Under the pieces are notes generated by a model. The model saw only the letters and a program-made list of their open reading frames with translations, was not told where the DNA came from and ran no database searches. Below, piece by piece: positions 1,641 to 20,205 of a stretch of DNA of 64,000 nucleotides (position 1 is its first letter; every line of letters begins with the position of its first letter). The translations under genes were made by a program, and so were the position numbers. Source of the DNA: a virus (taxonomy: Duplodnaviria > Heunggongvirae > Uroviricota > Caudoviricetes); IMG/VR virus record IMGVR_UViG_3300048593_000385. The stretch is one strand, 5' to 3'.

Positions 1641-1670
1641 GTGGCACCCCTTGGTATTGTAATCATAATC

Positions 1671-1678
1671 TATTTATG
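1671..1678 (-). promoter_or_regulatory. T4-type late promoter variant (CATAAATA)
   Basis: One mismatch to TATAAATA, 30 nt upstream of the portal ATG. Confidence 0.65.
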
Positions 1679-1684
1679 CGGTTA

Positions 1685-2221
1685 TTAAATGCCGCCAGCA
1701 TTACCAGTAGTACCAGCTTCAATGTCCCAGTAGTCGTATGTGAAGGTAACATTGAAACGCTCGAACTGATTGGTGTCTGACCAGTCAAGACGAATAGGAT
1801 CGATTCTTGATGGATAGATACCATTGAAACGATAAACGCGAAGCAGAGTTCCGTCCTTAGCCAACTGACCAACACGAGCTGTTGACTTGTATTGTGTAGT
1901 TGTTCTTAGGTTCTCTACCTTCATGTTGATTGCATCTGACCATGCTTCAAGAGCATTACGAACAGCGAAATCTTCATCGTTCATGATTGTAACAGTCCAA
2001 GGATCGTAAGTACGATCGCCAGCAAAGTTAATTACACGACCAAAATATGGAACAGGGATATTCCCGAGGTTTGACTCGGGAATATTTGTTGTGCTTGCTA
2101 GGAATTGAATTGTGCTATCAGCAGCAGAATCTACAGGATTGAAGATGTCAACGCTGAATAGCGTAGGACGAGCACCTTCAAACTGGAAATTCGCTCTTAC
2201 TTCGTTAATATTGAAAGCCAT
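1685..2221 (-). CDS. gp19: Tail tube protein (T4 gp19-like)
   Basis: GARPTLF...PYFGRVINFAGDRTYDPWTVTIMNDEDFAVRNALEAWSDAIN motifs; synteny. Confidence 0.96.
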   Translation of the reverse strand: MAFNINEVRANFQFEGARPTLFSVDIFNPVDSAADSTIQFLASTTNIPESNLGNIPVPYFGRVINFAGDRTYDPWTVTIMNDEDFAVRNALEAWSDAINMKVENLRTTTQYKSTARVGQLAKDGTLLRVYRFNGIYPSRIDPIRLDWSDTNQFERFNVTFTYDYWDIEAGTTGNAGGI

Positions 2222-2236
2222 TTTTTATTGCTCCTC

Positions 2237-4333: not shown

Positions 4334-4370
4334 GCTCCTTTTAGGTTGAAAGGCGATTTTTTATCTCTAT

Positions 4371-4378
4371 TATTTATA
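4371..4378 (-). promoter_or_regulatory. T4-type late promoter TATAAATA
   Basis: Exact consensus upstream of gp18. Confidence 0.85.
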
Positions 4379-4381
4379 AAA

Positions 4382-6067
4382 CTACCAATTTAGAGGAAGC
4401 ATATTATCGCTCATAGGTCTGTGATCATCAGGATCGTACCATTTTGGGTGGATATCTAAACTGTCAAATTCATTAGGAGAAACTGTTTCTTCCTCATATA
4501 TGCTGTTGACATCAAAATATCCAAACGGCGCAATAGAATCTTCGATTATCTCTCTATTCTCAGCCCATAAATCGGCACGAACATCAGTATCAGTTTTGTT
4601 TCTAAAATACTGCTGATGTGCCAACCAAGCAAACAGAACGCAACACATAACAATATCGTCATGCTCACCTTCTTCTGCCTCATAAGAAGCCTTATTTTCT
4701 ATGAACCTAAACAGCTCATAGATAAAATCGTAGTCATGAAACAACAGCTTATCTTGTTCGATAAGGGTTTTGAGGTTAGCGCATCCAATGCGTTTCACCT
4801 GTTTTGTTGTTTTCACACCACGAGTCGGCTTTACTTTGTATCCACCGCCAACTTTGATTCCTGCTCTACCTCTAGTTTGCGTCAATAAGACGCCATCATA
4901 TTCTAAGTCGTAGAACAAAATATCAGCGATTTGCTGTCCATTATCATTTACTTCCACTAGTATCATTGCATCATTATAGTATTTCCCTGCTCGCCAAATA
5001 ATATTTGGGTAGAGCAGCGGAGAAATTTCGTTATCTCGATATTTAGCTACGAATTTATATGGTACTTGAGTGACATCAAATACCACAAAAACTGAATAGT
5101 CTATTCCAACACCCCGAGAGGTATCTACCGTAATAACATATTTATGATTTTCAATCGGTTCGAAATATATATCCATATTCTCATGGCTTTGTATTGGTCG
5201 CTTCCAAACCAGCTGCTTTAGCTTTCTTGCATCGATCAATGTATTGCTTGAACCAAGAAACTCGCATTCAAATTCTTGCTCGAACTGCCTTTCGGAAGTG
5301 TTCGAGATTGTTTCTTTTTTCCATTCTTCGTCGCGTCCTGGGATTTCTGACCAGTGAACGCTAACTCTTTTGTATGTGTTGCGACCTTCTTCGGAGTCTG
5401 CCCAAATCTTATAGAACATATTCATGCCGTTTGGCGTAGAGGTGATCAGCACCTTTGATGTTTTACCAGAAGAAATAGTAGGATAAACTGAGTTGAAGAA
5501 TTCTTCTTGTAGGTTTGACGGCACGAAAGCAAATTCGTCTAGATAGACTAGATTCTGAGAAGTACCACGAATCGCCGAGCTTGAGGTGGCAGAAGCAAGA
5601 ATCTTAGATCCATTTTCTAATTCAATATCGCCCTTGTTCCATGTGACGATGCCTTGCTGCAGCCATTTCGGCAGATGTTCATACATACCCTGAATACGGC
5701 CAAGGATTTCTTTAGCCTGTCTGTCTTTGTTGGCCAGAATAGCGATAGAGAAGTTTTCGTGAAACAGAACATACCAGAGCAACAGAGCTGCAACCGTCTG
5801 TGTCTTACCAACCTGACGAGGCATTTTACAGATGACGAAACGATCGTCAACCATTTTTTGGATCATCTCTTCTTGGAAGGTCCAGAGATTAAACGGTATT
5901 AGACCTTGGTCAACGTTAACGATCTTACAATATGTTTTGATGAAATAAATTGGATCTTGGGCGCATTTGATGTAGTCTTGGATATTGTCTTCTGTCCAAG
6001 GAACTTTTACATTAACAGGCTTTAATTTTCTATTGCCAAGATAGGTGGTATTCTCAGCTACCTTCAT
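4382..6067 (-). CDS. gp17: Terminase large subunit (T4 gp17-like)
   Basis: Walker A MPRQVGKT, Walker B LVYLDEFAF, TSTPNG motif, nuclease motifs VDTSRG and HDDIVM. Confidence 0.97.
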   Translation of the reverse strand: MKVAENTTYLGNRKLKPVNVKVPWTEDNIQDYIKCAQDPIYFIKTYCKIVNVDQGLIPFNLWTFQEEMIQKMVDDRFVICKMPRQVGKTQTVAALLLWYVLFHENFSIAILANKDRQAKEILGRIQGMYEHLPKWLQQGIVTWNKGDIELENGSKILASATSSSAIRGTSQNLVYLDEFAFVPSNLQEEFFNSVYPTISSGKTSKVLITSTPNGMNMFYKIWADSEEGRNTYKRVSVHWSEIPGRDEEWKKETISNTSERQFEQEFECEFLGSSNTLIDARKLKQLVWKRPIQSHENMDIYFEPIENHKYVITVDTSRGVGIDYSVFVVFDVTQVPYKFVAKYRDNEISPLLYPNIIWRAGKYYNDAMILVEVNDNGQQIADILFYDLEYDGVLLTQTRGRAGIKVGGGYKVKPTRGVKTTKQVKRIGCANLKTLIEQDKLLFHDYDFIYELFRFIENKASYEAEEGEHDDIVMCCVLFAWLAHQQYFRNKTDTDVRADLWAENREIIEDSIAPFGYFDVNSIYEEETVSPNEFDSLDIHPKWYDPDDHRPMSDNMLPLNW

Positions 6068-6467
6068 TTTGACCCTTAATCATTTTCAATAAATCATTTG
6101 TCGAAATAACAAGATTGTTGTTGATAGTTTGTTTCTCTTGTGGCTTTTCGATCAGAGTCTTTTTCTTCTGATGAATGTCAATTAAGTCCTTGCTGGTGTC
6201 GCGAATTGTGTCGACTAGCTTGGCCACAACTTCAAATGCTCTTGGGTGTTGAGAACCTTTGGCTATTTGGCATAAATCTTCTAACGCACCTTGGCTAGTT
6301 TCAAGAGCCGTCATGATCGCATCGCGAGCAACATCAAAGTCGCCTTCGGCTTGCTCCCATTGAGTTTCTGGTTCATTTATTTCAACAAGATCACTTTTTT
6401 GCTTGACTTCTAAAGGCATCGGAGGTAAGTTAAGTAACTGTCCGATTTTATCTTCCTTTTTATCCAT
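6054..6467 (-). CDS. gp16: Terminase small subunit (T4 gp16-like)
   Basis: SQHPRAFEVVAKL motif, C-terminal NNNLVISTNDLLKMIK, overlaps the gp17 start. Confidence 0.92.
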   Translation of the reverse strand: MDKKEDKIGQLLNLPPMPLEVKQKSDLVEINEPETQWEQAEGDFDVARDAIMTALETSQGALEDLCQIAKGSQHPRAFEVVAKLVDTIRDTSKDLIDIHQKKKTLIEKPQEKQTINNNLVISTNDLLKMIKGQNEGS

Positions 6468-7293
6468 TATTAAAATCCTCAGTAAAATCCACTATGAATC
6501 CATAATCATCAGTAGATTTAATTTGTGATGTGGGAATAGAGTTGGAGGCATTGGAAGTTGGCTCTCCGTTCGCAGTAAGTCCTGGTTTGGTATTAGTAAT
6601 AGTTACTGGGTCGCCTGTTCCTATACCTTCAGCAGCTGTATTTGTGTTCGGTATAAATTTGTTGACGATGACTTCCTTAATCTGGCTTTGACGACGAACT
6701 GGGCCATAGAGTTGACCTTTGAGAACAAAAGTCATTTCCCAGATTACCCACTCTTTGTCTTCAAAGTTGCTGGCATAAGTGTCAACAGTGCTTACGTTCT
6801 TGATGATGATTGGAACATCAATATTTACATCCATCTCAGGAATCAGAGCCAATGTTTCTGTCCACTGTGGTGTGAAATATGGAACAATCTGCTCCACAAT
6901 ACGAACAGCGTCTTCTGTATTTCTAGAGATGATCGACAGGGTTATGTCAAAGTTGTAAGCCACAGGATTGTATTGTGTTGCAAGAACATTTCCGTTTGAT
7001 GTGACGGAAGGGATTCTGCCAATGCTGTTCAGTTTTCTGTCTGGATCATAACTTACGCCTGTAATCTCAAACGACATTCTAGGAAACACCATTGAAACTT
7101 CGCGCAGCAGATCAGGATTTTGTTGATACCGAGTAAGGTATCTTTCTTTCGGTCCATATTGCAGCGGAACCTTGATTGTTCTTTGTGATACACCATTGGC
7201 GTCTACACGATCAATATAGATGTCATTGAACAGCGACCCAAACAGAACCACATATTTGCGAATAAGACCGTGGTAGAAATGCGAGCCTAACAT
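6460..7293 (-). CDS. gp15: Tail sheath stabiliser / tail terminator (T4 gp15-like)
   Basis: FYHGLIRKYVVLFGSLFNDI, KVPLQYGPKE, FPRMSFEI, QIVPYFTP. Confidence 0.94.
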   Translation of the reverse strand: MLGSHFYHGLIRKYVVLFGSLFNDIYIDRVDANGVSQRTIKVPLQYGPKERYLTRYQQNPDLLREVSMVFPRMSFEITGVSYDPDRKLNSIGRIPSVTSNGNVLATQYNPVAYNFDITLSIISRNTEDAVRIVEQIVPYFTPQWTETLALIPEMDVNIDVPIIIKNVSTVDTYASNFEDKEWVIWEMTFVLKGQLYGPVRRQSQIKEVIVNKFIPNTNTAAEGIGTGDPVTITNTKPGLTANGEPTSNASNSIPTSQIKSTDDYGFIVDFTEDFNNG

Positions 7294-8015
7294 TAGATAA
7301 TTTCTCCAAACGGATTCTTCTTAGAGAAGTCAATAAACGCACGACCCTCTGAGCTAAACAGACTGTTCTGAGTTGATGGATCAATTACGTCTGTATCGAA
7401 TTGACCTTCTGTCAGACCCGAACCGTCCCCAGCAAGTAGAGCATTTCCGTCTTGATCAGTGAAGAAGAATTCGTCAACTGCTGTGCTAAACTTGCTTCCG
7501 ATATTATCAATGGCAGCAACCCCAGTTTCGATTTTCTCGTTACTGATATTGACACGTTCAGCTTTAATATCGTAGTATGTCAACATCCCTGTTTGGTAGA
7601 AGTTGGATTCGTGCTCAACAAACTTGACCTCAAACAAAGCATTTGTCAAAGGTAGATAAATAAAGTCGCCCTCGAGTGGGCGGATGAGGCTTGGCTGGAA
7701 GTTGGTAAATTCGTCAGCCCAACGATTGCGCATCATGCTGAAAGTAATTTGGTCAGCCATACTGATACCAAACTTCTGCATAAGATCGCCTTCACCCTGC
7801 CAACCAGTAAAGGTCTTGATGTAGACTTCGATGGCAGTTGCTTGGTTGAATTCTGACAGAGTATCTTCGTTCCACAACCTGTCGATATTGACGTGAGAAC
7901 GAGGCATATAATATACGTCGATACCGTAACGTTGAATCATCTCCGTGCCTAAATCAGCAAGAAGTTGTTGCTCTCCGTAATTGGTAAAGTTATCAAAAAA
8001 TGTTGAAACAGCCAT
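7293..8015 (-). CDS. gp14: Neck protein (T4 gp14-like)
   Basis: EQQLLADL..EMIQRYGIDVYYMPR, RPLEGDFIYLP, FEVKFVEHE, C-terminal DFSKKNPFG. Confidence 0.94.
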   Translation of the reverse strand: MAVSTFFDNFTNYGEQQLLADLGTEMIQRYGIDVYYMPRSHVNIDRLWNEDTLSEFNQATAIEVYIKTFTGWQGEGDLMQKFGISMADQITFSMMRNRWADEFTNFQPSLIRPLEGDFIYLPLTNALFEVKFVEHESNFYQTGMLTYYDIKAERVNISNEKIETGVAAIDNIGSKFSTAVDEFFFTDQDGNALLAGDGSGLTEGQFDTDVIDPSTQNSLFSSEGRAFIDFSKKNPFGEII

Positions 8016-8018
8016 CAG

Positions 8019-8759
8019 TTATCCCATCATCATAGGAACAGGATAAGTAAATCCTGAAGTCATTGTTGCTTCCATCTTTTCAATTTCAGCGGTCGCATCA
8101 TCGTAAATCTTCTCGGCATTAAATCTTGCTCCGCCAGGAAGCGCAACGTCTTGGAATTTGGTGAGGTTGGTTCCCCACTGTTGTTTGATAAGTGCTGTTG
8201 CATATCTCTGTAGGAAACGGTCAGACCAAACTTTGGTGTACGTGTCGGGATCGACAATCTGATATGCTTCCACAAGAATATAAGTTCCGATAGGAGATTT
8301 ATCCCAGTCCATATCGATATACAGTCTATTTGATCTGCGGTTATAGCGAATTGGCTGTTGACCAACCAAAAGCTGCTCTAGGAGTTGAATGTGTTGCATA
8401 GCCATATAATATGGCACCATCGTAGTTGCAGTAAGATCGTAAAGATCGTTCAACGCAATCTGATAACGAATATTGAATAGGTTATTGGTTGACAAAGAAG
8501 AACCGATAGGGAAGATCGCAACAGCACCAATAATATTATCAGGTAGTGTGATGTATTTGTTGGCAGCTGCTTCGGGTGTGATCAATGCTTTGTAGTATTG
8601 CTTTTCGCTACCATCGAAATGATAGTCCCAGTAATACTGCAACGCATCGTCGATACGCTCTTGTAGTTGATCTTCGTCTACGTTAATCTGAGTAACAGGT
8701 GCACCGACTCTACGCAGGCAATATTGCTTGAATTGTTCTCTAGATGTTGGTAATGCCAC
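8019..8759 (-). CDS. gp13: Neck protein (T4 gp13-like)
   Basis: PTSREQFKQYCLRRVGAPVTQINVDEDQ, YATALIKQQWGTNLTKF..LPGG. Confidence 0.95.
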   Translation of the reverse strand: MALPTSREQFKQYCLRRVGAPVTQINVDEDQLQERIDDALQYYWDYHFDGSEKQYYKALITPEAAANKYITLPDNIIGAVAIFPIGSSLSTNNLFNIRYQIALNDLYDLTATTMVPYYMAMQHIQLLEQLLVGQQPIRYNRRSNRLYIDMDWDKSPIGTYILVEAYQIVDPDTYTKVWSDRFLQRYATALIKQQWGTNLTKFQDVALPGGARFNAEKIYDDATAEIEKMEATMTSGFTYPVPMMMG

Positions 8760-8783
8760 TGATAGCCTCCGTGTTTTTCTTTC

Positions 8784-8791
8784 TATTTATA
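8784..8791 (-). promoter_or_regulatory. T4-type late promoter TATAAATA
   Basis: Exact consensus upstream of gp13. Confidence 0.85.
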
Positions 8792-8794
8792 TAG

Positions 8795-8802
8795 AATAAA
8801 TA
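8795..8802 (+). promoter_or_regulatory. Late-promoter-like AATAAATA for the plus-strand trio
   Basis: One mismatch to consensus, back-to-back with the gp13 promoter, 27 nt upstream of ATG 8830. Confidence 0.5.
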
Positions 8803-8829
8803 CCATATGCAACAAGAGAAGGATATATT

Positions 8830-9417
8830 ATGAAAGAAGAAATTGATCACCTTAAAGAACATGGATATGTTCGGATAAAAAACTTCATGGCTCCAGACAT
8901 GATAGAGCTTTGTAAATCGTTCCTAGACTTATCTGTAGCATCTGGGCTCAGAAAACCAGAGACAAATCCATATTTGACGGGAGACATCGAACAGATTCTA
9001 CCGAATATCTTTGTCGATAGTATGTTATTGGCATACAAAAATCGAATAGAGTCTCTTTTTGACACTGAAATGATACCTTCATATATTTTCTTGAGAGAAT
9101 ATCTTAAGGGATCAGAACTGTTAATCCACAGAGATCGCCCTCAGTGTGAATTTTCTGCGACCATTTTAATCGACAAACAAGGCGAAGGAAACACAAGTTT
9201 ATTTTTCTGTGATGACGAAGAGGGAACCAATCCTGTTGAAGTTAATATGGAAGAAGGCGATGCCATTATATTTTCTGGCGCATCTGATTTTGATGGCAAA
9301 TGGCATTATAGACCAAAATTGAAACAGAAATCGATTGTAACTGCATTTCTGCATTATGTGTCTCCAGAAAATAAACCAAACAATATATTCCCTCGTCCAA
9401 TTTACAGGAGTAGATAA
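8830..9417 (+). CDS. 2OG-Fe(II) oxygenase-like protein
   Basis: HxD motif (LIHRDRPQCEFSAT), GDAIIFSG, distal His (WHYR), FLHYV; resembles the oxygenases common in aquatic T4-like phages. Confidence 0.8.
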   Translation: MKEEIDHLKEHGYVRIKNFMAPDMIELCKSFLDLSVASGLRKPETNPYLTGDIEQILPNIFVDSMLLAYKNRIESLFDTEMIPSYIFLREYLKGSELLIHRDRPQCEFSATILIDKQGEGNTSLFFCDDEEGTNPVEVNMEEGDAIIFSGASDFDGKWHYRPKLKQKSIVTAFLHYVSPENKPNNIFPRPIYRSR

Positions 9418-9722
9418 TGTCCACATACAAATCCGAATTCAAAGCTCAAATTCAGTGGGTAGATTTAGCAGACAATCGTATGGTTGTAGTGTATTCTGAT
9501 CCTCACGGTTATGAAGATATAACACAAACTATAAAATTCTATAAGACTGATACGATAGAAAAGATAAAAGAATCTATCATAAACACGACTCCGCACCAAA
9601 GATTCCATTTTCGTGCTGAAGCAGAAAAAAATAATGATGGAGACAATTCTCTGGAAATTTTAAAGCTGCTGAACACAGAAATGACATACAAACTGCCATC
9701 GTTTGATAATGAGGATATCTAA
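9417..9722 (+). CDS. Hypothetical protein, 101 aa
   Basis: TAATG-coupled to the genes on both sides. Confidence 0.75.
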   Translation: MSTYKSEFKAQIQWVDLADNRMVVVYSDPHGYEDITQTIKFYKTDTIEKIKESIINTTPHQRFHFRAEAEKNNDGDNSLEILKLLNTEMTYKLPSFDNEDI

Positions 9723-10369
9723 TGACTGATATTACTGATCTCATCAAGAATTATACCAAACTGCAATATTTGGCACTTGTTCCTGAAATTAGATTGTTTA
9801 TCAGAAACGATCATTATTTGCATGAAATGTTGATGGAAGAAGTGAACGACGAGTTCGTTGCTTGGCCAGAGTGGTCTAACGTCTGGGCAGGTGGCCACGG
9901 ATTAGCAAGATATATTCTAGACAATCCAGAATTGTTTGCAGGAAAAACTGTAATGGACTACTGCTCTGGTAGCGGTGTGGCTGGTATCGCGGCTGCTCTC
10001 GCGGGAGCAACGAAAGTTACTTGTGTTGATATTGATCAATATGCGCTTCAGGCGATCAAACTCAATGCCAAAGCCAATAAGGTGGAAGTAGAAGTATCCA
10101 AGACGCCTGTTGAAGCCGATGTCATTTTGGTTGGATGTCCTTCGTTTAAAACATTAGACGGAACATTTCCAGAAGAACAATTAGAACTGATCAAATCTTA
10201 TGAAAATTCATACCTCGGATACAAAATAATCAGAGACGAATATACTAAGGGTTTCTTTGACGCAGGAGAATTCGAGATTATTGATCGTAAAACAGTTCCT
10301 ACTTCTCAACATGTAGAAGGAAGAACGTTCCAAAAAGTAATTCTTATGACTTATATAAAACAGGAATAG
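9722..10369 (+). CDS. Class I SAM-dependent methyltransferase, METTL20/ETFB-KMT (PrmA-like) type
   Basis: VPEIRL, WSNVWAGGHGLARYILDNPELFAGKTVMDYCSGSGVAGIAAALAGA..V..VDID (motif I plus post-I). Confidence 0.85.
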   Translation: MTDITDLIKNYTKLQYLALVPEIRLFIRNDHYLHEMLMEEVNDEFVAWPEWSNVWAGGHGLARYILDNPELFAGKTVMDYCSGSGVAGIAAALAGATKVTCVDIDQYALQAIKLNAKANKVEVEVSKTPVEADVILVGCPSFKTLDGTFPEEQLELIKSYENSYLGYKIIRDEYTKGFFDAGEFEIIDRKTVPTSQHVEGRTFQKVILMTYIKQE

Positions 10370-11598
10370 TAATCAAATTGTTCGTCTACAGTTTTCCCTT
10401 CCATCTCTTTAACTTCTTTATTTTTTAAGTCAATATAGTGATCAATAATTGTCTGTCCGATAGCTGATGTGAGAATATGATCGTCTTTGAGATATTGAAG
10501 CGATTCGCTCAAACACTTTGGCATATGTTTATCTGACTTTTGTTCTATAAGACTTTTGTTGGTTTCTGATTTTGGGAAGGGATATTTGTGTTTGTATCCA
10601 AGAAGCATTGCATGCAATATAGCAGCCAGAGCAAAATATGGATTGGCTGAATAATCAGCGACTCTATATTCAATTCTGGCTCTTGATTCCGTTTCAGTTG
10701 ATACTCTAACTGAGGAATGGCGAGTTCCTTTTCTCCAGTTTGCCCAATAACCAGCTGCTCTATATTCGTGTACTCTCTCGTAACTGTTTACCGTAGGTGC
10801 CACGATTGCAGTAAGAGGCTTGTGGTGGTGCAATAATCCAGCGATAGAGCCTTTCATAACATCAGACATTTCTTCACCAGAGAACACATTCTCGCGTGTT
10901 TTGATGTCAGTAAAACTAATATTAAAATGCAATGCATTCCAGCCATCTGTTTTGGGAACTGGCATATAGCTGAGCAAATATCCACGCTTAATTAAAATTT
11001 CTCTTGACATTTGCCTGAACAGAAACACATTATCTGTAGCATCCAATGCGTCACTGTATTTCATTGTGAATTCAAATTGTCCTGGATCGTATTCTGAGTG
11101 CACAGATTCCAAAGGCAAATTGCATTTCTCTGCCATATTCCATATGTCGTCGATTAATCCTGCGGGATCAGAAAATGCTCCAGTGCTATAAAAACGAGCA
11201 TTATATTTGTTGTACGGATTTCCGTCATGATCAAAAATATTTGCTTCGGTTTCATATCCAACCATAGGTTCTAGACCTATATCTCTCCAAGCATTAATTG
11301 CTCTTTTTAGGGTTGTTCTGCCACAAAGAGGAAATGATTCGCCGTCAAGATACATGTCAGGCAAAACGATTTGCGTTCCTGCTTCCCATGATGGTCTGGC
11401 TGCACGCCAGTCGAATTTTCCTTCGATATCATGGTATTCATTGATTATGTCAAGACCGCCCGAAGGAGGATTCCCCGAATACCCAGCAGAATATGCACCA
11501 ACACAAAAACGAACAGATCCGTTTTTTGTTTCTGGGATATATTTGCCTCTTGCTATATTCATTTGATCTAAGAACAAGACGCGAAAACGATTAGGCAT
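10351..11598 (-). CDS. Glutamine synthetase-family ligase (closer in style to gamma-glutamyl-amine ligases than canonical GlnA)
   Basis: FLDQMNIARGK, GYETE, HSEYDPGQFE, LHFNIS, APTVNSYER, RIEYRVADYSANPY. Confidence 0.85.
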   Translation of the reverse strand: MPNRFRVLFLDQMNIARGKYIPETKNGSVRFCVGAYSAGYSGNPPSGGLDIINEYHDIEGKFDWRAARPSWEAGTQIVLPDMYLDGESFPLCGRTTLKRAINAWRDIGLEPMVGYETEANIFDHDGNPYNKYNARFYSTGAFSDPAGLIDDIWNMAEKCNLPLESVHSEYDPGQFEFTMKYSDALDATDNVFLFRQMSREILIKRGYLLSYMPVPKTDGWNALHFNISFTDIKTRENVFSGEEMSDVMKGSIAGLLHHHKPLTAIVAPTVNSYERVHEYRAAGYWANWRKGTRHSSVRVSTETESRARIEYRVADYSANPYFALAAILHAMLLGYKHKYPFPKSETNKSLIEQKSDKHMPKCLSESLQYLKDDHILTSAIGQTIIDHYIDLKNKEVKEMEGKTVDEQFDYYSCFI

Positions 11599-11607
11599 CT
11601 ACAAATC

Positions 11608-12612
11608 CTATACGATATAAGGTAACCACAACTGCTCTTCGTTTTCGTCATTAATTAACTCTTGGCTAGCACTGCTCGCAAAAGGAAAATGCTGTAGTTT
11701 GATTAATGTCGGGTATGCTCTTTTACGATCTTCAATTTTTTCATCGATATAATCTACGCCAGAATAATTGTAGTATTCGATCAGAACTGACTCTGGAACA
11801 TCCCTGAGATACCTTTTCCATTGCTCGATAGACAATGCAACTCTGCGTCCATATTCATCCATTGTAATTATTGGCTTGATCCATTGTTTAGTTGGCCAAT
11901 CGTGTGCGCCTGCAAAATGATAGCAATGCACTTCTGTTGGGGCATACATGTAGTATCCAGCCTCAAAAGAACTTAGAGTAAGAAGTTGTTCTTCGCCATC
12001 ATAAAATGATAGATGATTGATACCAACATTTTCAAGCCAATCTATGTGTGTGAACAAATTTCCAGCAAAAAGATGAATAGTAGGAACTACATCAGTTGTT
12101 GGTGGAACATGGTGGCCATGCACTCCATTAATAGAATCTCTACCCCAATGGAAGTATTGTGCATAAGTGGTAATACCATTTGCTTCAATATGTTTGTGTG
12201 GCACTCCTTCTTCTATTGTGAAAGTTTTGGTCGCACCATCAATAATTACTTTTTTGCTACCAGATTTTTTTACGCCTCGTTTATAATCTTCTACAAGATA
12301 ACGATCCCAGTTTTTATCGAACAACATGTGCGAGTCAATCTGATAAAAGAAATCCTCATCTCTCACATTAAGAGAGTTGACCTTTCTTGCCCAACCAACG
12401 CCGTCAGAAACGATTGGGTCAACTCTCTTATAAACAACATCTGGTCTTTCTACAAGTTCTGGATACAGATTCTCCAAAGAATCTTCAAATGCAGTTTGTT
12501 CTAAAACTGAATATGTTGCTTCGTGTTTGTTGGATTTTTCTTCAATCAAGCTCTCGAGCGTGTAGTGAAGAAGGGAATCTCTATACGAACAAATGGAGAC
12601 AAATATTTTCAT
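11608..12612 (-). CDS. Glycosyltransferase, GT60/Gnt1 (GlcNAc-transferase)-like, GT-A fold
   Basis: IFVSICSYRD N-terminus, GVGWAR, FFYQIDSHMLFDKNWD (DSH metal motif), FAGNLF, GEEQLL. Confidence 0.78.
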   Translation of the reverse strand: MKIFVSICSYRDSLLHYTLESLIEEKSNKHEATYSVLEQTAFEDSLENLYPELVERPDVVYKRVDPIVSDGVGWARKVNSLNVRDEDFFYQIDSHMLFDKNWDRYLVEDYKRGVKKSGSKKVIIDGATKTFTIEEGVPHKHIEANGITTYAQYFHWGRDSINGVHGHHVPPTTDVVPTIHLFAGNLFTHIDWLENVGINHLSFYDGEEQLLTLSSFEAGYYMYAPTEVHCYHFAGAHDWPTKQWIKPIITMDEYGRRVALSIEQWKRYLRDVPESVLIEYYNYSGVDYIDEKIEDRKRAYPTLIKLQHFPFASSASQELINDENEEQLWLPYIV

Positions 12613-13325
12613 TTTCCGAGATTAAACACTTTCTTTAACATTTGAAACTTGCGATAATACTGCTTGTCATCTCCTGGAATTGCGTTGTTATAATAATCTA
12701 ATTGTTGTTCTGTTCCTGGACCAAACCCAGCATTAAATTCTTTGTTCCAAAATGGGATTACGTGTAGCAAAGGATCACCTGCTTTAATGTGCACTTGGCA
12801 TTTTCTTTTTGGCGCACAAATAAAATTAGCTGTGTGGAATTTCTTATAATCGACAGACCCAGGAAACACCTCAAGGTCGTCTAAGAAATCCGAGTGATAG
12901 TATGCTGGAAGCAACAGTGCAGTTACATCACCTTTGGCAAAAATACCCCAAGGAGAATTGAAGTTTATTGGAGTAACAGGAACATCGTCTTCTGGATGAA
13001 TCAATCCTTCAACGACTTTGGCATCCATAAGTCTACCTTCACGATATCCTCTGTTCCCTCTCTCTCCAGATCCAATATAGTGCACTACTCCTGCTTTATT
13101 TGCCATAATATGAATATCAATCCAGGCAGGGATAATATAGCCAAGTTGTGCATATTGTATCATTCCTGGACAATGTGGCATTAGGTGCTTTTGGTGTTTA
13201 TTTTTTTGTATGTCAAAAGTTCTTGGCTTGACGTCGCTTGCTCTCATTATAGGAAATGTTTGATACGCAGTTCTATTCGTATCAACAAATTCCAAATCGC
13301 GTTTCTTTTTAAACAAGTTGATCAT
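12609..13325 (-). CDS. Hypothetical protein, DUF6065/dUTPase-fold-like
   Basis: CPGM..Y..LGYIIPAW.DI, SPW, IKAGDPLLHVIPF; paralogous to 13322-14041. Confidence 0.55.
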   Translation of the reverse strand: MINLFKKKRDLEFVDTNRTAYQTFPIMRASDVKPRTFDIQKNKHQKHLMPHCPGMIQYAQLGYIIPAWIDIHIMANKAGVVHYIGSGERGNRGYREGRLMDAKVVEGLIHPEDDVPVTPINFNSPWGIFAKGDVTALLLPAYYHSDFLDDLEVFPGSVDYKKFHTANFICAPKRKCQVHIKAGDPLLHVIPFWNKEFNAGFGPGTEQQLDYYNNAIPGDDKQYYRKFQMLKKVFNLGK

Positions 13326-14041
13326 TTTCTAGGCTCTCTCAATTCCTTGGTATACACATGACGACGAGTTCCCTGCATTTTCGAGATATTATCGATATCA
13401 GAAAACTCTTTGTCAGTCATAGATCTAATTGCTGGATTTGTTGGAATAGAAGATCTTTTGACAGGATGGACAACTACCAGAGGAGTTCCTGCTGGAATAA
13501 TATCATCAAAGTTAGGAGTGTGCCAAGCAGCAGGGAAATTAATCTCTTTGGGGTATTTATCAGTGTCAACCAATCCAGAGAGACAAGTAAAATGCCCACC
13601 AAAAGTGTTTACGAGAGGAGTGATCATAGTTGACCATCCAGGAGCTGTTTTGATCACCCAGTAGTTTACAAATTTAAGTGGTGTTGTGGGAAACCCAGGA
13701 GCTGTTTTTTCGCCTAGCTGTTTGATGTTGTGGAATTCACAAATTTTCATGGTTGGTGGATTGGTAATTTCGATTTGAGTTTTGTCTGCATTTGTCTTGA
13801 CATGAAGATCGCCCTGAAGCGGAATCACATATCCCATGGTCATTGCATCTAACATAGGCAGACACTTTTTTGCGGTCATGCTTTTTGCGCCAAACTCATC
13901 TCTATCCTCCATAAAAGGAGGGATTTTCTTGAACCATTCAGCAACATATTTGGCAGCTGGTTTTGGCTCGGGAATAATACCGTAGTTGTTGGGGTGACAG
14001 TAGAATTCAATGATTGGTTTTGGTTTGAATAAATTAAACAT
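13322..14041 (-). CDS. Hypothetical protein, DUF6065/dUTPase-fold-like (start revised from 14125 to the ATG at 14041)
   Basis: KKCLPMLDAMTMGYVIPLQGD, W..KTAPGWS, IPAGTPLVVVHPVKR; the ATG overlaps the upstream stop (TAATG). Confidence 0.55.
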   Translation of the reverse strand: MFNLFKPKPIIEFYCHPNNYGIIPEPKPAAKYVAEWFKKIPPFMEDRDEFGAKSMTAKKCLPMLDAMTMGYVIPLQGDLHVKTNADKTQIEITNPPTMKICEFHNIKQLGEKTAPGFPTTPLKFVNYWVIKTAPGWSTMITPLVNTFGGHFTCLSGLVDTDKYPKEINFPAAWHTPNFDDIIPAGTPLVVVHPVKRSSIPTNPAIRSMTDKEFSDIDNISKMQGTRRHVYTKELREPRK

Positions 14042-14631
14042 TATCCGTTTCTCTTTCCCATCACCCACATTACCAGAGACTTTCTTTCTCCTGAGATAAC
14101 AGGCTTCACGCGATGAGGCATCCAAGAAGCGAAGAATAGAATATCGCCCTTTTTAGGTTTGATAACTCTTGTGTCTTCAAAATTGCCGTTGATGCAAATC
14201 TCAAATTCTCCACCCTCATATTCTTCTGGTTCAGTCAATAACATAACCGCAGAGATTTTACGCTGGAAATTCTGCCATCCGAATTCAACATCCCAATGCC
14301 ATGTGTAGTGCTGATCAATTTTATATTTTGTATACTGAAGCGATTCTATTCCCTCAATATCATACATAAAGTGCTGATGATTTACTGTTGCGGTGATTTG
14401 GCCCAGCCTCTCAAACAACCATTGCGAGTTTTGATCAGGAAGAATCCAAGCAACCTCAGAGTCTCTAATCTCTTTTTTTGGATTGTTAGTATCGCTTCCA
14501 ATTTTGCCATGTTCGAAATTCTGAAGATCTTCTAGGAATGATATTTTATCAACCTCTTCAGGAGTGAAACCATTTTCCCATACCGCGAAACATTCCAACG
14601 GTGCATTATATTTGTAAAAACCAAATGTCAT
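14041..14631 (-). CDS. 2OG-Fe(II) oxygenase, PKHD/prolyl-4-hydroxylase-like
   Basis: IRDSEVAW, QYTKY, HxD (WHWD), RKISAV, YEGGEF, KGDILFF, PHRV, GERKSLVMW. Confidence 0.9.
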   Translation of the reverse strand: MTFGFYKYNAPLECFAVWENGFTPEEVDKISFLEDLQNFEHGKIGSDTNNPKKEIRDSEVAWILPDQNSQWLFERLGQITATVNHQHFMYDIEGIESLQYTKYKIDQHYTWHWDVEFGWQNFQRKISAVMLLTEPEEYEGGEFEICINGNFEDTRVIKPKKGDILFFASWMPHRVKPVISGERKSLVMWVMGKRNG

Positions 14632-14650
14632 AATAATTCCTCATAATATA

Positions 14651-15838
14651 TCAAGATACAACTATACTTATAGTTCCTCCAGTAGCGACTGTCACAGGAT
14701 ATGTTGCGTTGTCTGGATAAGCATAATAACTAACCAACGTCGCACTAATTGGAGTAGCAGTAGTTCCCCCTGTCGGAGAACCAGGAGCTGTTACGCCAAG
14801 CGCAGAAGATGGATTGCCTGCAACAGCAGGAACGATTGGATTGTAGTTAAGATTTCCAGGAACAATAGGATTATAATTTGCAGGTCCAGGAACAATAGGA
14901 TTATAATTTGCAGGTCCAGGAACAATAGGATTATAATTTGCGTTTCCAGGAACGATTGGGTTATAATTAAGATTTCCAGGAACGATTGGATTGTAGTTAA
15001 GATTTCCAGGAACAATTGGGTTATACTTCAATGTTCCAGGAACAATTGGGTTATACTTCAATGTTCCAGGAACGATTGGATTATACTTCAATGTTCCAGG
15101 GACAATTGGGTTATAATTTGCGTTTCCAGGAACGATTGGATTATAGTTTAAGTTCCCAGGAGTGATTGGGTTGTAGTTAAGGTTTCCAGGAACAACTACG
15201 TTGTAGTTTGGGACCTGTTGACCGAACTTAGCAAAATATCGGTATCCAGAAATATTAGAAGGTGTCGGAGCATTGTATGCACCAGTGGAATTACCTCCAG
15301 AAGGAGAATTGTACGTGCCAGTAGATGTTCCGCCTGTCGCAGGATTAGTGCCAGCAAATGACCCGCCAGAAGGTGCGTTATAAGTTCCAGTAGAAGAACC
15401 ACCAGAAGGCGCATTATAAGTTCCTGTTGAGGATCCACCCGACGGAGAATTATAAGTTCCTGTTGAGGATCCGCCAGAAGGTGAGTTATAAGTTCCTGTT
15501 GAGGATCCACCAGAAGGTGCGTTATAAGTTCCTGTTGAGGATCCACCAGAAGGTGCATTGTATCCAACTAATGATCCACCAGAAGGTGCATTGTATCCAA
15601 CTAATGATCCACCAGAAGGTGCATTATAATTGGCTAATGAACCACCAGAGGGTGCATTGTATGTGGCAGATGTGCCGCCAGATGCAGCTGTTCCTGTGCC
15701 GCCGCGACCTGACACGTTGATCACATTTTTGCCGAAAGGAACTGTGATGTTTCCAGGAGCATTAAAGTTGGTAGTACCAATACCACTTTGCCTCCAAGTT
15801 TTTTCTAATCCGTAATTTCCACCTGCGCCAATACCCAT
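14651..15838 (-). CDS. Gly/Pro-rich repeat protein A, probable virion appendage
   Basis: Gly-rich domain split by 12 YN(A/S)PSGG-type units, a 17-aa linker and 13 YNPI(V/T)PG-type units. Confidence 0.8.
   Translation of the reverse strand: MGIGAGGNYGLEKTWRQSGIGTTNFNAPGNITVPFGKNVINVSGRGGTGTAASGGTSATYNAPSGGSLANYNAPSGGSLVGYNAPSGGSLVGYNAPSGGSSTGTYNAPSGGSSTGTYNSPSGGSSTGTYNSPSGGSSTGTYNAPSGGSSTGTYNAPSGGSFAGTNPATGGTSTGTYNSPSGGNSTGAYNAPTPSNISGYRYFAKFGQQVPNYNVVVPGNLNYNPITPGNLNYNPIVPGNANYNPIVPGTLKYNPIVPGTLKYNPIVPGTLKYNPIVPGNLNYNPIVPGNLNYNPIVPGNANYNPIVPGPANYNPIVPGPANYNPIVPGNLNYNPIVPAVAGNPSSALGVTAPGSPTGGTTATPISATLVSYYAYPDNATYPVTVATGGTISIVVS
14828..15208 (-). repeat. 30-bp coding tandem repeat, (N/T/P)(L/A)(N/K)YNPI(V/T)PG x12 plus one degenerate unit
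   Basis: Counted in the translation; the repeat is visible in the DNA. Confidence 0.95.
15260..15661 (-). repeat. 33/36-bp coding tandem repeat, YN(A/S)PSGG.. x10 plus two degenerate units
   Basis: Counted in the translation. Confidence 0.95.
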
Positions 15839-15853
15839 CTTAATATTCTTTCA

Positions 15854-16843
15854 TTAAGAGCTGACGATAGTTATGCTGCCACCTGGTGCAACAGTCACTG
15901 GATATGTTGCGTTGTCTGGATAAGCATAATAACTAACCAACGTCGCAGAAATAGGAGTAGCTGGCGTTCCGCCAATTGGAGACCCAGGAGCAGTAACTCC
16001 CAATGCTGATGATGGATTTCCTGCTACGGCAGGAAAAAATATACCATAAGTTTGATTTCCTGGAGTAATTGGGTTGTAGTTGAGAGTTCCTGGAGTAATT
16101 GGGTTGTAGTTGAGAGTTCCTGGAGTAATTGGGTTATAGTTAAGGTTTCCAGGAGTAATTGGATTATAGTTTAAGTTCCCAGGAGTAATTGGATTATACT
16201 TCAATGTCCCAGGAGTAATTGGGTTATAGTTAAGGTTTCCAGGAACGATTGGGTTATAATTAAGATTTCCAGGAACGATTGGATTGTAGTTAAGGTTTCC
16301 AGGAACAACTGCGTTGTAGTTTGGAACCTCTTGGCCGAACTTAGCAAAATATCGATATCCAGCAATATTCTCTGGTGTTGGAGCATTGTATGCACCAGTG
16401 GAATTACCTCCAGATGGTGCGTTATAAGTTCCTGTGGAATTACCTCCAGATGGTGCGTTATAAGTTCCTGTGGAATTACCTCCAGATGGTGCGTTATAAG
16501 TTCCTGTGGAATTACCTCCAGATGGTGCGTTATAGTTTGCTGCGCCTCCGCCAGTCGGTGCATTGTAGTTTGCAGCTCCACCACCTGTTGGAGCATTGTA
16601 GTTTGCTGGGTTTCCGCCTGATGGAGCGTTGTAATTTGCAGCACCTCCACCAGATGGAGCGTTGTATCCTGTCGGCGCACCACCACTAACAGCAGTGCCT
16701 GTCCCGCCACTACCAGAAACATTAATGAAGTTCTGGCCATATGGAATGGTAAAGTTTCCAGGAGCATTAAATGTAGTGGTGCCAGTGCCGCTTGCACGCC
16801 ACGTTTTTTCTAAAAGAAATTTACTTCCACCAATTCCTGGCAT
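15854..16843 (-). CDS. Gly/Pro-rich repeat protein B, paralog of A
   Basis: Same 59-aa N-domain, 17-aa linker and 58-aa C-domain lengths as A; 9 + 10 repeat units. Confidence 0.8.
   Translation of the reverse strand: MPGIGGSKFLLEKTWRASGTGTTTFNAPGNFTIPYGQNFINVSGSGGTGTAVSGGAPTGYNAPSGGGAANYNAPSGGNPANYNAPTGGGAANYNAPTGGGAANYNAPSGGNSTGTYNAPSGGNSTGTYNAPSGGNSTGTYNAPSGGNSTGAYNAPTPENIAGYRYFAKFGQEVPNYNAVVPGNLNYNPIVPGNLNYNPIVPGNLNYNPITPGTLKYNPITPGNLNYNPITPGNLNYNPITPGTLNYNPITPGTLNYNPITPGNQTYGIFFPAVAGNPSSALGVTAPGSPIGGTPATPISATLVSYYAYPDNATYPVTVAPGGSITIVSS
16031..16321 (-). repeat. 30-bp coding tandem repeat, YNPI(V/T)PG x8 plus two degenerate units
   Basis: Counted in the translation. Confidence 0.95.
16373..16666 (-). 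repeat. 33/36-bp coding tandem repeat, YNAP(S/T)GG x8 plus YNAPTP
   Basis: Three exact copies of the 36-mer gtggaattacctccagatggtgcgttataagttcct at 16398-16505, plus a partial fourth. Confidence 0.95.
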
Positions 16844-16862
16844 TTAACTCTCCGTTATATTA

Positions 16863-16870
16863 TATTTATA
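16863..16870 (-). promoter_or_regulatory. T4-type late promoter TATAAATA
   Basis: Exact consensus about 20 nt upstream of ATG 16843, followed by a GGAGAG RBS. Confidence 0.85.
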
Positions 16871-16871
16871 T

Positions 16872-17501
16872 TTATGCCGCACCCTTGACGGCCAGAGAAA
16901 CAATCCATGTTGAACCTGCATTATATGTCAGAACGTTCCAAATATCAATAGCATTTGCCGATGTTGTTTGTGGTGGAGATACACCGCCTGCAAATCTAGT
17001 GCCAGATGGCCATGTAATTGTGCGACCGCCAGTAGCATCTTGAGCAGCGACAATAACAAAAGAAACAACTTTGCCTGTCGGAGCATTCGTGAACGTAAAA
17101 GTTGTGCTGCTTGACATTGTAAGGTTAAAGAAGTTCGATGTCGACAGGTCTAAGGTTGTTGCCGCTGACGAAACAGTAGTATTAGAAACATATTCAGAAT
17201 ATGCTCTGAGAGTGATACCACCACCGTATGGCGCCAGATCGATCTGTCCATTGGCAAACACCTCTATAGAAGGAATACCAGAAACGTCATTGACACTATA
17301 AATTGAGCCAGTAAGATCGTTGGTAATAGAAAATAGCTGACCAGCTGAACCTTCAAACGAAAGAGTTCCGTTCGAAGTAGGATATGTCTGCATAGTGATA
17401 GCAGTATTGACAGTAGCATTACCACCACGGAACTCGATTTTCGGATCCGCAGTGTTGCTTCTGTTTGGCGTTATGATAATATCTTTATAACTATTTGCCA
17501 T
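16872..17501 (-). CDS. Virion structural / fibre-associated protein, 209 aa
   Basis: LSFEGSAGQLFSITN..SVNDVSGIPSIEV motif; C-terminal domain shared with the 1699-aa fibre (QDATGGRTITWP). Confidence 0.7.
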   Translation of the reverse strand: MANSYKDIIITPNRSNTADPKIEFRGGNATVNTAITMQTYPTSNGTLSFEGSAGQLFSITNDLTGSIYSVNDVSGIPSIEVFANGQIDLAPYGGGITLRAYSEYVSNTTVSSAATTLDLSTSNFFNLTMSSSTTFTFTNAPTGKVVSFVIVAAQDATGGRTITWPSGTRFAGGVSPPQTTSANAIDIWNVLTYNAGSTWIVSLAVKGAA

Positions 17502-18818: not shown

Positions 18819-19021
18819 TATACTTCACAATCCTTACAAGGTTGACGCCATTTAGATTCGGCGGTTATGGCGCTCAATTCGCTGTCTTCATAAAAGGCAA
18901 TACATTCTATTGGTGTTTCTGATCGCACGAGTGCTACAGTGCCATCAGCAGAAATAATTATTTCAGAAGCTCCGACAGCATGTGCAGCTGGTATATCTGT
19001 TGTTGAAATTTCGTAGATCAT
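18818..19021 (-). CDS. Small hypothetical protein, 67 aa
   Basis: Translationally coupled on both sides. Confidence 0.65.
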   Translation of the reverse strand: MIYEISTTDIPAAHAVGASEIIISADGTVALVRSETPIECIAFYEDSELSAITAESKWRQPCKDCEV

Positions 19022-20205
19022 ATACCGTACCTTCCTCTAAGAGCATTGAAGTTTTGTTGGACTTCTGCAGCAGTCAATCCTCGATTGTAAATTGCTACTT
19101 GGTGTATTCTGCCATTAAAACATTGACCTGCTGCATGTTGAGACATACCAATGTAAAGATTTGCCGAAGGATTCACATCTGCGGTAAACCCTATTTGAGC
19201 TTGATACGCACCATTGACATAAAAATTGAGTAGACTGCCGTTTCGGACAAAATCTAATTTATACCACACTCCCACAGTAGGCGCAAACGCAAAGTTACCC
19301 CATAAACTTCCCATAGAGTATATGTTAATGATATTTGTCTCGTGCCTGATCAACAAAGTGCTGGTCCAAGAACCATTTTCAAAAATTGTTCCTAATGATG
19401 CGATAGCATTAAGATTGACCCAACAAGAATATGACCAATCTGTTGTCCGATGTATCAAATTGGTATTTGGTGCACTTATAAAGTTAGTAGACCCGTTAAA
19501 ACTAAATCCGTTTGCTGCATATGTGACACTATTGGCTGTGATAGTAGTTTTACTGACAGGATCGAGGAGTGTTTGTGTGTTTGATCTTGTGCCTGTAGTA
19601 TAAGAAGCGACATGAACACTGTCGTTGCGATCTTCTTTAAATGGACCAGCCCAAAATATTACAATTGGCACGTTTAGAGTAGCAGTTGCTGGATTGATGG
19701 CCCAGTATTTACCATCGACTCGCGTTGTAGTGTCATACCATATAACCTCTCCTCTTGACCATCCTCCGCCCATGGGCACAGATCGATCAGACCCCAATGA
19801 ACCAGCACCCCATCCAGCAATATTACTGTAGTTGGTAAACAAAGGGACAGAATGCATAGGGACAGTAGACTTGTAGAATATTCCATGACCTGTATATCGA
19901 TTGGCCAATCCACCACCGCCACTAGTCACTACACCAATACCAGGATTGTTTCCTGCTGTAAGATAACTGACACCAGTTGCAGTTGTAGGAGTTAGCGTTA
20001 GCCTCCACACAACAGCACCACGATAATATTCGGTTGTAGAAACTAATGTTGCTGTGACATGCGCAGGAACATTGTTGTAAATGCTCATGCTAGTATCGAG
20101 CAGATTAGTTGTCGGCGCTCCACGGTATGACTTCTCGGTGTTACCTATGTCATAAGCAAGCGTCAATCCATTTGTGACTATCTTAGGAGAGTGATTCAGT
20201 CCCAT
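19018..20205 (-). CDS. LamG/concanavalin-A-like domain virion protein, 395 aa
   Basis: SPKIVTNGLTLAYD; FSFNGSTNFI, WSYSCWVN, FNGRIHQVAIYNRGLTAAEVQQNFNALRGRYGI. Confidence 0.78.
   Translation of the reverse strand: MGLNHSPKIVTNGLTLAYDIGNTEKSYRGAPTTNLLDTSMSIYNNVPAHVTATLVSTTEYYRGAVVWRLTLTPTTATGVSYLTAGNNPGIGVVTSGGGGLANRYTGHGIFYKSTVPMHSVPLFTNYSNIAGWGAGSLGSDRSVPMGGGWSRGEVIWYDTTTRVDGKYWAINPATATLNVPIVIFWAGPFKEDRNDSVHVASYTTGTRSNTQTLLDPVSKTTITANSVTYAANGFSFNGSTNFISAPNTNLIHRTTDWSYSCWVNLNAIASLGTIFENGSWTSTLLIRHETNIINIYSMGSLWGNFAFAPTVGVWYKLDFVRNGSLLNFYVNGAYQAQIGFTADVNPSANLYIGMSQHAAGQCFNGRIHQVAIYNRGLTAAEVQQNFNALRGRYGI

Follow-up and report, generated by a model that had tools for sequence, protein, structure and literature searches.

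A putative late-expressed tailoring cassette linking repeat proteins, a prolyl 4-hydroxylase-like oxygenase and paired DUF6065 proteins in a T4-like freshwater phage

The 64,000-nucleotide stretch of viral DNA analysed here (the window; IMG/VR record IMGVR_UViG_3300048593_000385, Caudoviricetes) carries between positions 8,830 and 16,870 a block of ten genes. On the minus strand, two repeat proteins are followed by a prolyl 4-hydroxylase (P4H)-like oxygenase dependent on 2-oxoglutarate (2OG) and Fe(II), two DUF6065 proteins, a GT60-family glycosyltransferase (GT) and a ligase of the glutamine synthetase (GS) family. This run converges on a plus-strand trio consisting of a second oxygenase, a small open reading frame (ORF) and a methyltransferase (Table 1). 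We find that repeat protein, oxygenase and DUF6065 recur together in almost all related lineages, and we consider it on balance likely that they form a tailoring cassette, expressed late, conserved and horizontally mobile in tailed phages, whose substrate is a repeat protein associated with the fibres. The gene content suggests that these phages probably decorate an exposed appendage of the virion chemically. An ORF check placed all ten genes, the tandem repeats and the late promoter where a preliminary description, made from the DNA letters alone, had put them.

Table 1. Genes and promoters of the block and its fibre neighbour, in order along the minus-strand run and then the plus-strand trio
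Feature	Position	Strand	Remarks
Short tail-fibre-like protein (209 aa)	16872..17501	-	phrog_9017 and phrog_7760 tail-fibre families
T4-type late promoter TATAAATA	16863..16870	-	19 nt upstream of rep1 ATG
rep1 (329 aa)	15854..16843	-	conserved N- and C-terminal half-domains around a repeat insert
rep2 (395 aa)	14651..15838	-	rep1 paralog, 65% identity; more repeat copies in both arms
P4H-like 2OG-Fe(II) oxygenase (196 aa)	14041..14631	-	PF13640 2OG-FeII_Oxy_3; H112-x-D114, H173, R183
DUF6065a (239 aa)	13322..14041	-	PF19541 36.8 bits vs cut-off 26.6; dUTPase-like fold
DUF6065b (238 aa)	12609..13325	-	phrog_7084 5.5e-18; DUF6065a paralog, 24% identity
GT60-family GT-A glycosyltransferase (334 aa)	11608..12612	-	PF11397 83.6 bits vs cut-off 21; D93-x-H95
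GS-family ligase (415 aa)	10351..11598	-	PF00120 Gln-synt_C 226 bits
Late-like promoter AATAAATA	8795..8802	+	28 nt before ATG of 8830; one mismatch from consensus
Second 2OG-oxygenase-like protein (195 aa)	8830..9417	+	no Pfam match; phrog_2954 1.4e-25; HxD...H pattern
Small ORF (101 aa)	9417..9722	+	no family match; coupled translationally to both neighbours
Class I S-adenosylmethionine (SAM) methyltransferase (215 aa)	9722..10369	+	PrmA, Methyltransf_16 and MTS matches

The window represents the virion module of a myovirus of T4 type: homologues of gp13, gp14, gp15, sheath, tube, portal and the two terminase subunits lie at 3-8759. The block stands between homologues of gp13 to gp20 and a set of fibre and baseplate genes, in agreement with its earlier placement inside the virion gene cluster; beyond 17.5 kb follow the baseplate wedge and very large structural proteins. 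The source is an uncultured freshwater phage, because the whole block has no match among 50,697 phage records (megablast), the large terminase is only 57% identical to its nearest isolates, Synechococcus phage S-PM2 and Methylophilales phage Melnitz, and 43-95% of the words sampled from block DNA were found again in lake-water metagenomes from three or more other studies.

The late promoter motif at the head of the minus-strand run, TATAAATA, occurs ten times in the window against an expectation of 2.8. Minus-strand copies make up nine of the ten, and no fewer than seven of them stand 15-50 nt upstream of a long minus-strand ORF. The minus-strand genes themselves are separated by gaps of 9-19 nt or overlap by 1-4 nt: the start of DUF6065a lies over the stop of the P4H-like oxygenase (1 nt), and overlaps of 4 nt join DUF6065a to DUF6065b and DUF6065b to GT60. 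The enrichment, the short gaps and the overlaps bear out the proposal of a coupled run headed by a late promoter. The plus-strand trio likewise stands behind a late-like promoter as proposed, AATAAATA lying back to back with the late promoter of gp13 at 8784-8791 on the minus strand. Late expression and translational coupling of the cassette are thereby supported at the level of its DNA.

Conservation of the arrangement was assessed in 80 IMG/VR loci that were picked by DUF6065a alone out of 233 relatives found, scored by hidden Markov models (HMMs) from our own alignments and dereplicated at 90% identity into 25 clusters. The usual order of genes is tail-fibre C-domain protein, repeat protein, P4H-like oxygenase, DUF6065a, DUF6065b and GT60. 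By listing, the oxygenase is directly upstream of DUF6065a in all 25 lineages (23 under a strict distance rule), a repeat protein is present in 20 of the 21 lineages that could be assessed, and of the 20 lineages assessable for the fibre C-terminal domain (fibC HMM), 19 have it upstream of the repeat protein. DUF6065b is carried by 22 lineages and GT60 by 17. The neighbourhood survey that the preliminary description had called for therefore finds repeat protein, P4H-like oxygenase and DUF6065 together almost always, and GT60 with them in about two thirds of the lineages. Loci found via the GT, at 45-73% identity, have the same order in all cases, and T4-like contigs have the cassette just before gp13.

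The arrangement extends to phages of another type. An Undibacterium prophage with structural genes that are not T4-like (SU10-type adaptor) carries fibre, repeat protein, oxygenase and DUF6065a and b, with GT60 absent; its repeat protein, of 210 residues, has the same termini and a short core rich in Tyr, Asn, Pro, Ser and Thr. One contig (L092) has a permuted order, with oxygenase and then DUF6065a ahead of the repeat protein. Since the linkage survives both transfer between phage types and rearrangement, there is good evidence that the cassette behaves as a mobile functional unit.

The identity of the P4H-like 2OG-Fe(II) oxygenase, first suggested by inspection, is confirmed by a PF13640 score of 66.3 bits against a cut-off of 27 and by the presence of the iron triad and the 2OG-binding Arg. 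H112, D114 and R183 are invariant in 12 of 12 oxygenases and H173 is kept in 10 of the 12, including the enzyme of the window, while all ten oxygenases that adjoin DUF6065a retain every catalytic residue (alignment A4). When a profile of 12 orthologues was compared with the PDB, it matched only PKHD-type hydroxylases and true prolyl 4-hydroxylases, the latter from the chlorovirus PBCV-1 (5c5t, E 8e-8), Chlamydomonas, Bacillus anthracis and Pseudomonas (PPHD). The substrate of the PKHD hydroxylases among these solved relatives is not known, and no paper on the structure of PiuC was found in a literature search. Two loci with two repeat/oxygenase units each encode a second copy (L007:9426-10001 and L002:3393-3968) in which the distal iron-binding His is replaced by Ser or Ala, with HxD and Arg kept; judged from these residues, this copy, which lies beside GT60, may be a pseudo-enzyme or a substrate-binding subunit.

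Of the two DUF6065 proteins, DUF6065b falls under the Pfam cut-off; it aligns with DUF6065a, and the HMMs of the two cross-match. Family and pairing, as described earlier, are therefore borne out. The AlphaFold2 model of DUF6065a has a mean predicted local distance difference test (pLDDT) value of 91.8 and aligns with 120 of the 129 residues of the dUTPase 3h6x (VIA, exhaustive; Z 10.6, root-mean-square deviation 3.4 Å). Its top 22 structural matches all belong to the dUTPase/dCTP-deaminase superfamily, duplicated-domain herpesvirus proteins among them, and Foldseek agrees on the fold (E 5e-4). Profile search of PDB sequences gave no sequence homology to dUTPases, and hhalign against E. coli Dut gave a probability of 0.2. 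An attempt to place dUTPase motifs I-IV in DUF6065 was dropped, as neither a HMMER search of the PDB nor an hhalign comparison with E. coli Dut supported it. In view of this lack of similarity at the level of sequence, DUF6065 is not to be called a dUTPase.

The DUF6065 family is large, with 3,495 clusters at 50% identity (E <=0.001), and several members of 450-500 residues are tandem DUF6065-DUF6065 fusions that match the a/b gene pair. Across 141 diverse members a polar set consisting of C60, D65, D78, H104, K123, S137, D159, D161, R196 and Y230 is kept at 82-100%, which suggests a ligand-binding or active site. A cluster of 84 viral proteins in the Atlas, the only source for it, combines PF13640 and PF19541 in an oxygenase-DUF6065 fusion of ~382 residues. 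No such fusion was seen in the loci examined, and no longer fused relatives of DUF6065a were found among proteins of 420-2000 residues, a range that excludes the ~382-residue oxygenase fusion. In complex prediction the oxygenase and DUF6065a plus b reached a score of 0.46, the best of three controls scoring 0.00; runs agreed in at least 9% of contacts, with a partner pLDDT of at least 81. The mark used for such scores is reached by 58 of 80 solved complexes and by 2 of 110 mismatched pairs, and scores of 0.60 or less at the mark account for only 7 of the 80 solved complexes but for both of the passing mismatches. The prediction thus lends weak support to a contact between oxygenase and DUF6065.

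DUF6065 is also found in other arrangements. In L045 (12944-14154, minus strand), and also in L041-L066, a second, divergent DUF6065a-like gene stands immediately before a PF13640 oxygenase; in L045 about 5 kb separate the main cassette from this second pair, which has its genes in reverse order and stands where the locus ends. Halorubrum tailed phage 5 (L009, gene 36) and 50 other haloarchaeal myovirus records encode DUF6065 at 33-38% identity; in these viruses of HF1/HRTV type it is conserved as a lone gene that closes the tail/baseplate module, with no oxygenase or repeat protein within 7 kb. A metagenome-assembled genome of Planctomycetota (L021:5925-7663) has a DUF6065 gene right after, and overlapping, a MurB-like gene (UDP-N-acetylenolpyruvoylglucosamine reductase); the presence of a uridine-sugar enzyme beside a protein of dUTPase fold may be coincidence. 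The contexts of archaeal tandem DUF6065 genes gave no functional clue, and a literature search found no paper on DUF6065.

The genes at the head of the block encode the presumed substrate. The C-terminal domain of the short tail-fibre-like protein is the conserved domain that stands directly upstream of the repeat protein in relatives. The insert of rep1 consists of ~8 repeats of YNAP(S/T)GG type (11-12 residues) followed by ~8 of NYNPI(V/T)PGxL type (10 residues). In the DNA of rep1 and rep2 the corresponding tandem repeats have a period of 30 nt in 8-12 copies and of 33-36 nt in about 4-7.5 copies, and the two genes encode about 8-12 units of the 10-residue NYNPI(V/T)PG type and about 8-10 of the 11-12-residue YNAPSGG type. 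In the AlphaFold2 model of rep1, residues 20-55 and 270-329 are beta strands with a block pLDDT of 85-95, and the 200-residue insert stays below 50. The repeat protein is accordingly modelled as a small beta-sandwich split by a low-complexity insert. A fold search with the terminal half-domains of rep1 returned generic beta-sandwich matches (Z <=5.7), phage tail-tip and fibre proteins included and none outstanding.

Inside one cluster whose DUF6065a proteins are at least 90% identical, the repeat protein varies in length from 395 to 701 residues, and the insert therefore changes much faster than the enzymes do. Composition was scored on 40 dereplicated repeat proteins; their cores, with abundant Asn, Gly, Pro, Ala, Thr, Ser and Tyr, share no universal motif. 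One lineage has YNAQNVAS repeats with very little Pro, and others have units of NPPNPGxFTPG type with almost no Tyr-Asn. Tyr-Asn had been considered as a universal target motif and was dropped after the dereplicated survey, in which some cores were without it. As no motif of the insert is universal, the hydroxylated residue is not deducible from the repeats.

Some related loci add further features to the fibre and repeat genes. In L007, and also in L001 and L004-L006, the first repeat protein is split over two ORFs (L007:5452-7782 and 7782-9398). Residues 626-750, at the end of the N-terminal ORF of L007, form a module resembling Hint/AXH (42 bits for AXH; 25 bits for Hint, which falls short of its cut-off), and the second ORF continues with further repeats and has the conserved C-terminal half-domain at its end; such a layout could reflect a step of autoprocessing or ligation. 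The fibre genes of L012 (4844-7415) and of L014 and L015 encode collagen-like (Gly-X-Y) fibre proteins without Pro. In the window, two genes upstream of the cassette (19018-20205, minus strand), a structural protein ends in a C-terminal Laminin_G_3/concanavalin-like lectin domain (64.7 bits) and is a candidate carbohydrate-binding protein for receptor recognition.

The glycosyltransferase clears its PF11397 cut-off fourfold and its D93 and H95 are invariant in 27 of 27 GT sequences, so that its description as GT60-like is well founded. Having a DxH motif in place of DxD is a typical trait of families GT27 and GT60, whose known members glycosylate polypeptides (PMC7185993). No meaningful solved relative of the GT was found in the PDB by sequence or profile search.

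Behind the GT lies a slot whose content varies. Here it holds the GS-like ligase, the methyltransferase and the second oxygenase, all three of which had been assigned to the system; their families stand, and they prove to be clade-specific accessories with a weaker link to the repeat protein. Residues 68-399 of the ligase align to GS structures, and it remains under the cut-off of every named subfamily (166-169 bits against 429-650 for GlnA type I, type III and gamma-glutamylputrescine synthetase). The position that we take to be that of the GS 'Glu flap' within its motif is not Glu in the ligase alignment, which hints at an amine substrate other than ammonia. The nearest families of the methyltransferase are protein methyltransferases (PRMT, METTL21B and PrmA in the PDB), matched via the SAM-binding region only. 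The Atlas model of the second oxygenase compares with models of viral PF13640 2OG oxygenases at template-modelling (TM) scores of 0.86-0.87. The ligase is found in the window and in L011 only; the small ORF has a 63% identical homologue in the same place in L011. Methyltransferase and second oxygenase are confined to the closest clade, the former being present also in L011, L025-L028 and L088, and homologues of the latter in L026-L028 and L088.

In other lineages the slot is filled differently. L028 has a PF13759 oxygenase, a PhyH dioxygenase, a PrmA-like methyltransferase and a Sulfotransfer_1 protein; L014 and L016 have a Sulfotransfer_2 protein between repeat protein and oxygenase; L012 and L013 have a GT25 plus PLOD-GT protein of 628 residues. 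The latter adjoins a protein with a GEKGQKGE-type stretch, a pairing that recalls the glycosylation of collagen hydroxylysine. Repeated occupation of one slot by oxygenases and group transferases is to be expected if tailoring steps are encoded there, and each of its members, the three of the window included, is linked to the repeat protein by position only.

Taken together, one may envisage the following course of events. The core consists of a fibre protein with the particular C-domain, one or two repeat proteins whose long insert is hypervariable and has much Asn, Gly, Pro, Thr and Tyr, the P4H-type oxygenase and one or two DUF6065 proteins, and all genes would be made late from one promoter. 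The oxygenase, together with the DUF6065 pair, would hydroxylate many equivalent sites of the insert, proline being the best guess for the target. GT60, where present and thus also in this phage, would then place an N-acetylhexosamine on the new hydroxyl or directly on Ser/Thr, and the variable downstream slot would add a lineage-specific decoration, here by way of the GS-like ligase, the protein-type methyltransferase and the second oxygenase. The outcome would be an appendage near the tail fibres that carries many modifications and evolves fast, and by which adsorption, stability or shielding may be affected. A bolder version, which we offer tentatively and hold to be possible rather than likely, makes the cassette modular and exchanged horizontally and the oxygenase an obligate partner of the DUF6065 pair, the two jointly introducing a new modification on tens of sites of the insert, with glycosyl-, methyl-, sulfo- and amido-transferases being swapped to diversify the surface. 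Such chemistry might consist in an attack of the enzymatic hydroxyl on a DUF6065-bound uridine nucleotide or nucleotide-sugar, yielding a nucleotidyl or phosphoglycosyl adduct.

Several observations weigh against the tailoring cassette as set out above. The modelled dUTPase-like fold of DUF6065 points to nucleotides rather than proteins, and in haloarchaeal viruses, in Planctomycetota and on archaeal contigs DUF6065 has neither an oxygenase nor a repeat protein in its vicinity. The core can do without glycosylation, because GT60 is absent from about a third of the lineages; moreover, the GT is carried by none of the 50,697 phage records (tblastn), and the oxygenase copy that lies beside GT60 in L002 and L007 is without the distal His. 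The GS-like ligase, present in only two lineages, could be an unrelated accessory gene. Pro makes up anything from 3.2% to 31% of the core across lineages, Tyr-Asn is absent from some, and no single target motif is conserved. The 'Pro-rich YNxP' character regarded at first as the hallmark of these repeat proteins hence fits this phage and not the family, with its spread in Pro content, its YNAQNVAS lineage and its members with near-zero Tyr-Asn. Finally, that the repeat protein is a component of the virion we infer from its position and promoter only.

The enzymes might act on another target, be it the host envelope, a small metabolite or another virion protein such as a collagen-like fibre, and owe their linkage to a shared hypervariable island in the fibre region. 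The literature, in the portion consulted, usually treats phage 2OG oxygenases as auxiliary metabolic genes, and the GS-like ligase resembles metabolic enzymes. The accessory slot also varies in the manner of a moron island, and some relatives have collagen-like fibres beside a GT25/PLOD-type transferase. However, no collagen-like fibre adjoins the block in the window, proteins are the substrates both of the oxygenase's closest characterised relatives and of those members of the GT family that are known, and the pairing of repeat protein, oxygenase and DUF6065a survives both permutation and transfer to a non-T4 prophage. We regard this explanation as unlikely.

Slightly less probable still is that oxygenase and DUF6065 are assembly factors for the repeat or fibre protein, hydroxylation serving only folding as in collagen. 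The position of the genes directly downstream of fibre-type genes is the usual site of tail-fibre chaperones, and in the Undibacterium prophage the pair is followed by a DUF4376 protein, which we take to be a marker of fibre assembly. The repeat insert, modelled with low confidence, may need help in folding, and DUF6065 has no sequence-level match to catalytic dUTPases. What speaks for catalysis instead is that the active-site residues are intact in all ten oxygenases beside DUF6065a, the second copy of L002 and L007 alone lacking the distal His, and that DUF6065 has a conserved polar constellation of its own; the transferases of the adjoining slot, furthermore, make sense only if something is being decorated. 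As to a hypermodified base built on nucleotides or DNA by the joint action of the oxygenase, the proteins of dUTPase fold and the transferases for glycosyl, methyl and amido groups, this appears very improbable in spite of the dUTPase/dCTP-deaminase fold of DUF6065 and of known phage DNA hypermodification pathways that likewise combine hydroxylation, glycosylation and amide formation, given the late promoter and the position inside the virion module, an oxygenase of P4H/PKHD type and not of TET/JBP or AlkB type, GT-family members known to act on polypeptides, no adjacent nucleotide-metabolism genes, the strict linkage to a structural repeat protein and no detected sequence similarity of DUF6065 to dUTPases.

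If the tailoring cassette is what we propose, environmental phages hydroxylate and glycosylate their own appendages, DUF6065, a very large family of unknown function, gains a role, and an exposed surface is diversified both by repeat number and by the swapping of tailoring enzymes. This would bear on host range, on adsorption to glycan layers and on the evasion of recognition by hosts or grazers. It would also provide a compact set of enzymes for site-repetitive modification of proteins, with substrate and enzymes encoded side by side. Three things appear to be new: the cassette taken as a whole, the partnership between DUF6065 and the oxygenase, and the DUF6065 fold. There is also a real chance that the chemistry involving DUF6065 is of a new type. 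To our knowledge, chemical decoration of a virion appendage of this kind has not been described for tailed phages, and apart from glycosylation in mycobacteriophages, hardly anything has been explored of how phage virions are modified after translation. The earlier statement that no phage pathway of this kind is characterised agrees with our literature search, in which no paper describing this cassette was found, but it needs qualifying by precedents that lie outside the tailed phages, in the P4H of PBCV-1 and the collagen modification of mimivirus, or concern glycosylation alone, in the virions of mycobacteriophages.

Among the closest known systems is the modification of Skp1 in Dictyostelium and Toxoplasma, where the prolyl 4-hydroxylase PhyA acts first and the GT60 enzyme Gnt1 second. 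At the level of families and motifs the phage likewise encodes a P4H-type oxygenase together with a PF11397/GT60 DxH transferase, and the logic of hydroxylation followed by addition of N-acetylglucosamine fits the cassette. Skp1 is modified on one Pro of one cytoplasmic protein, whereas the presumed target of the phage consists of tens of repeats in a structural protein; moreover, the phage GT60 is dispensable in a third of the lineages, and the two DUF6065 genes between the enzymes have no counterpart in the Skp1 system. A literature search found no paper linking Gnt1, Skp1 or hydroxyproline chemistry to phages.

Among viruses, PBCV-1 has a P4H together with proline-rich repeat proteins, and mimivirus has collagen-like proteins modified by hydroxylase/glycosyltransferase. 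As in the phage, a virus-encoded enzyme of the P4H family is presumed to act on repetitive structural proteins of the virus, and the PBCV-1 enzyme (5c5t) is among the closest solved relatives of the phage oxygenase. In contrast to the phage, these are giant viruses of eukaryotes in which the genes do not form a substrate-plus-enzyme cassette and neither DUF6065 nor GT60 is involved, and the phage repeats are of neither collagen nor PAPK type. Within the tailed phages, virion glycosylation is on record for mycobacteriophages, where phage-encoded glycosyltransferases decorate the phage's own virion proteins (Freeman et al. 2023, PMC10527164). Unlike the present phage, those phages belong to another host clade. 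Their glycosylation reportedly employs other GT families and has capsid and tail-tube C-termini as targets, and we know of no hydroxylase, repeat substrate or DUF6065 involved in it.

In its fold DUF6065a resembles the trimeric dUTPases and dCTP deaminases, and in its paralog pair and tandem fusions the family recalls the dUTPase-related duplicated-domain proteins of herpesviruses. DUF6065 differs from the dUTPases in being ~100 residues longer, with extra N-terminal elements, a C-terminal helix and its own set of Cys, Asp, His, Lys, Ser, Arg and Tyr. The fold is left unexplained by the comparison with clusters for ribosomally synthesised and post-translationally modified peptides (RiPPs) that the preliminary description had drawn. 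This comparison describes the layout of genes only, with no leader peptide or cleavage evident: family searches found no protease or recognition-element gene in the cassette, and the conserved termini of the repeat protein correspond to a folded domain rather than to a leader. As in RiPP clusters, the substrate gene comes first and is followed by tailoring enzymes and by variable extra enzymes; unlike in RiPPs, the substrate of the phage would be a folded structural protein bearing a modified insert, not a released peptide.

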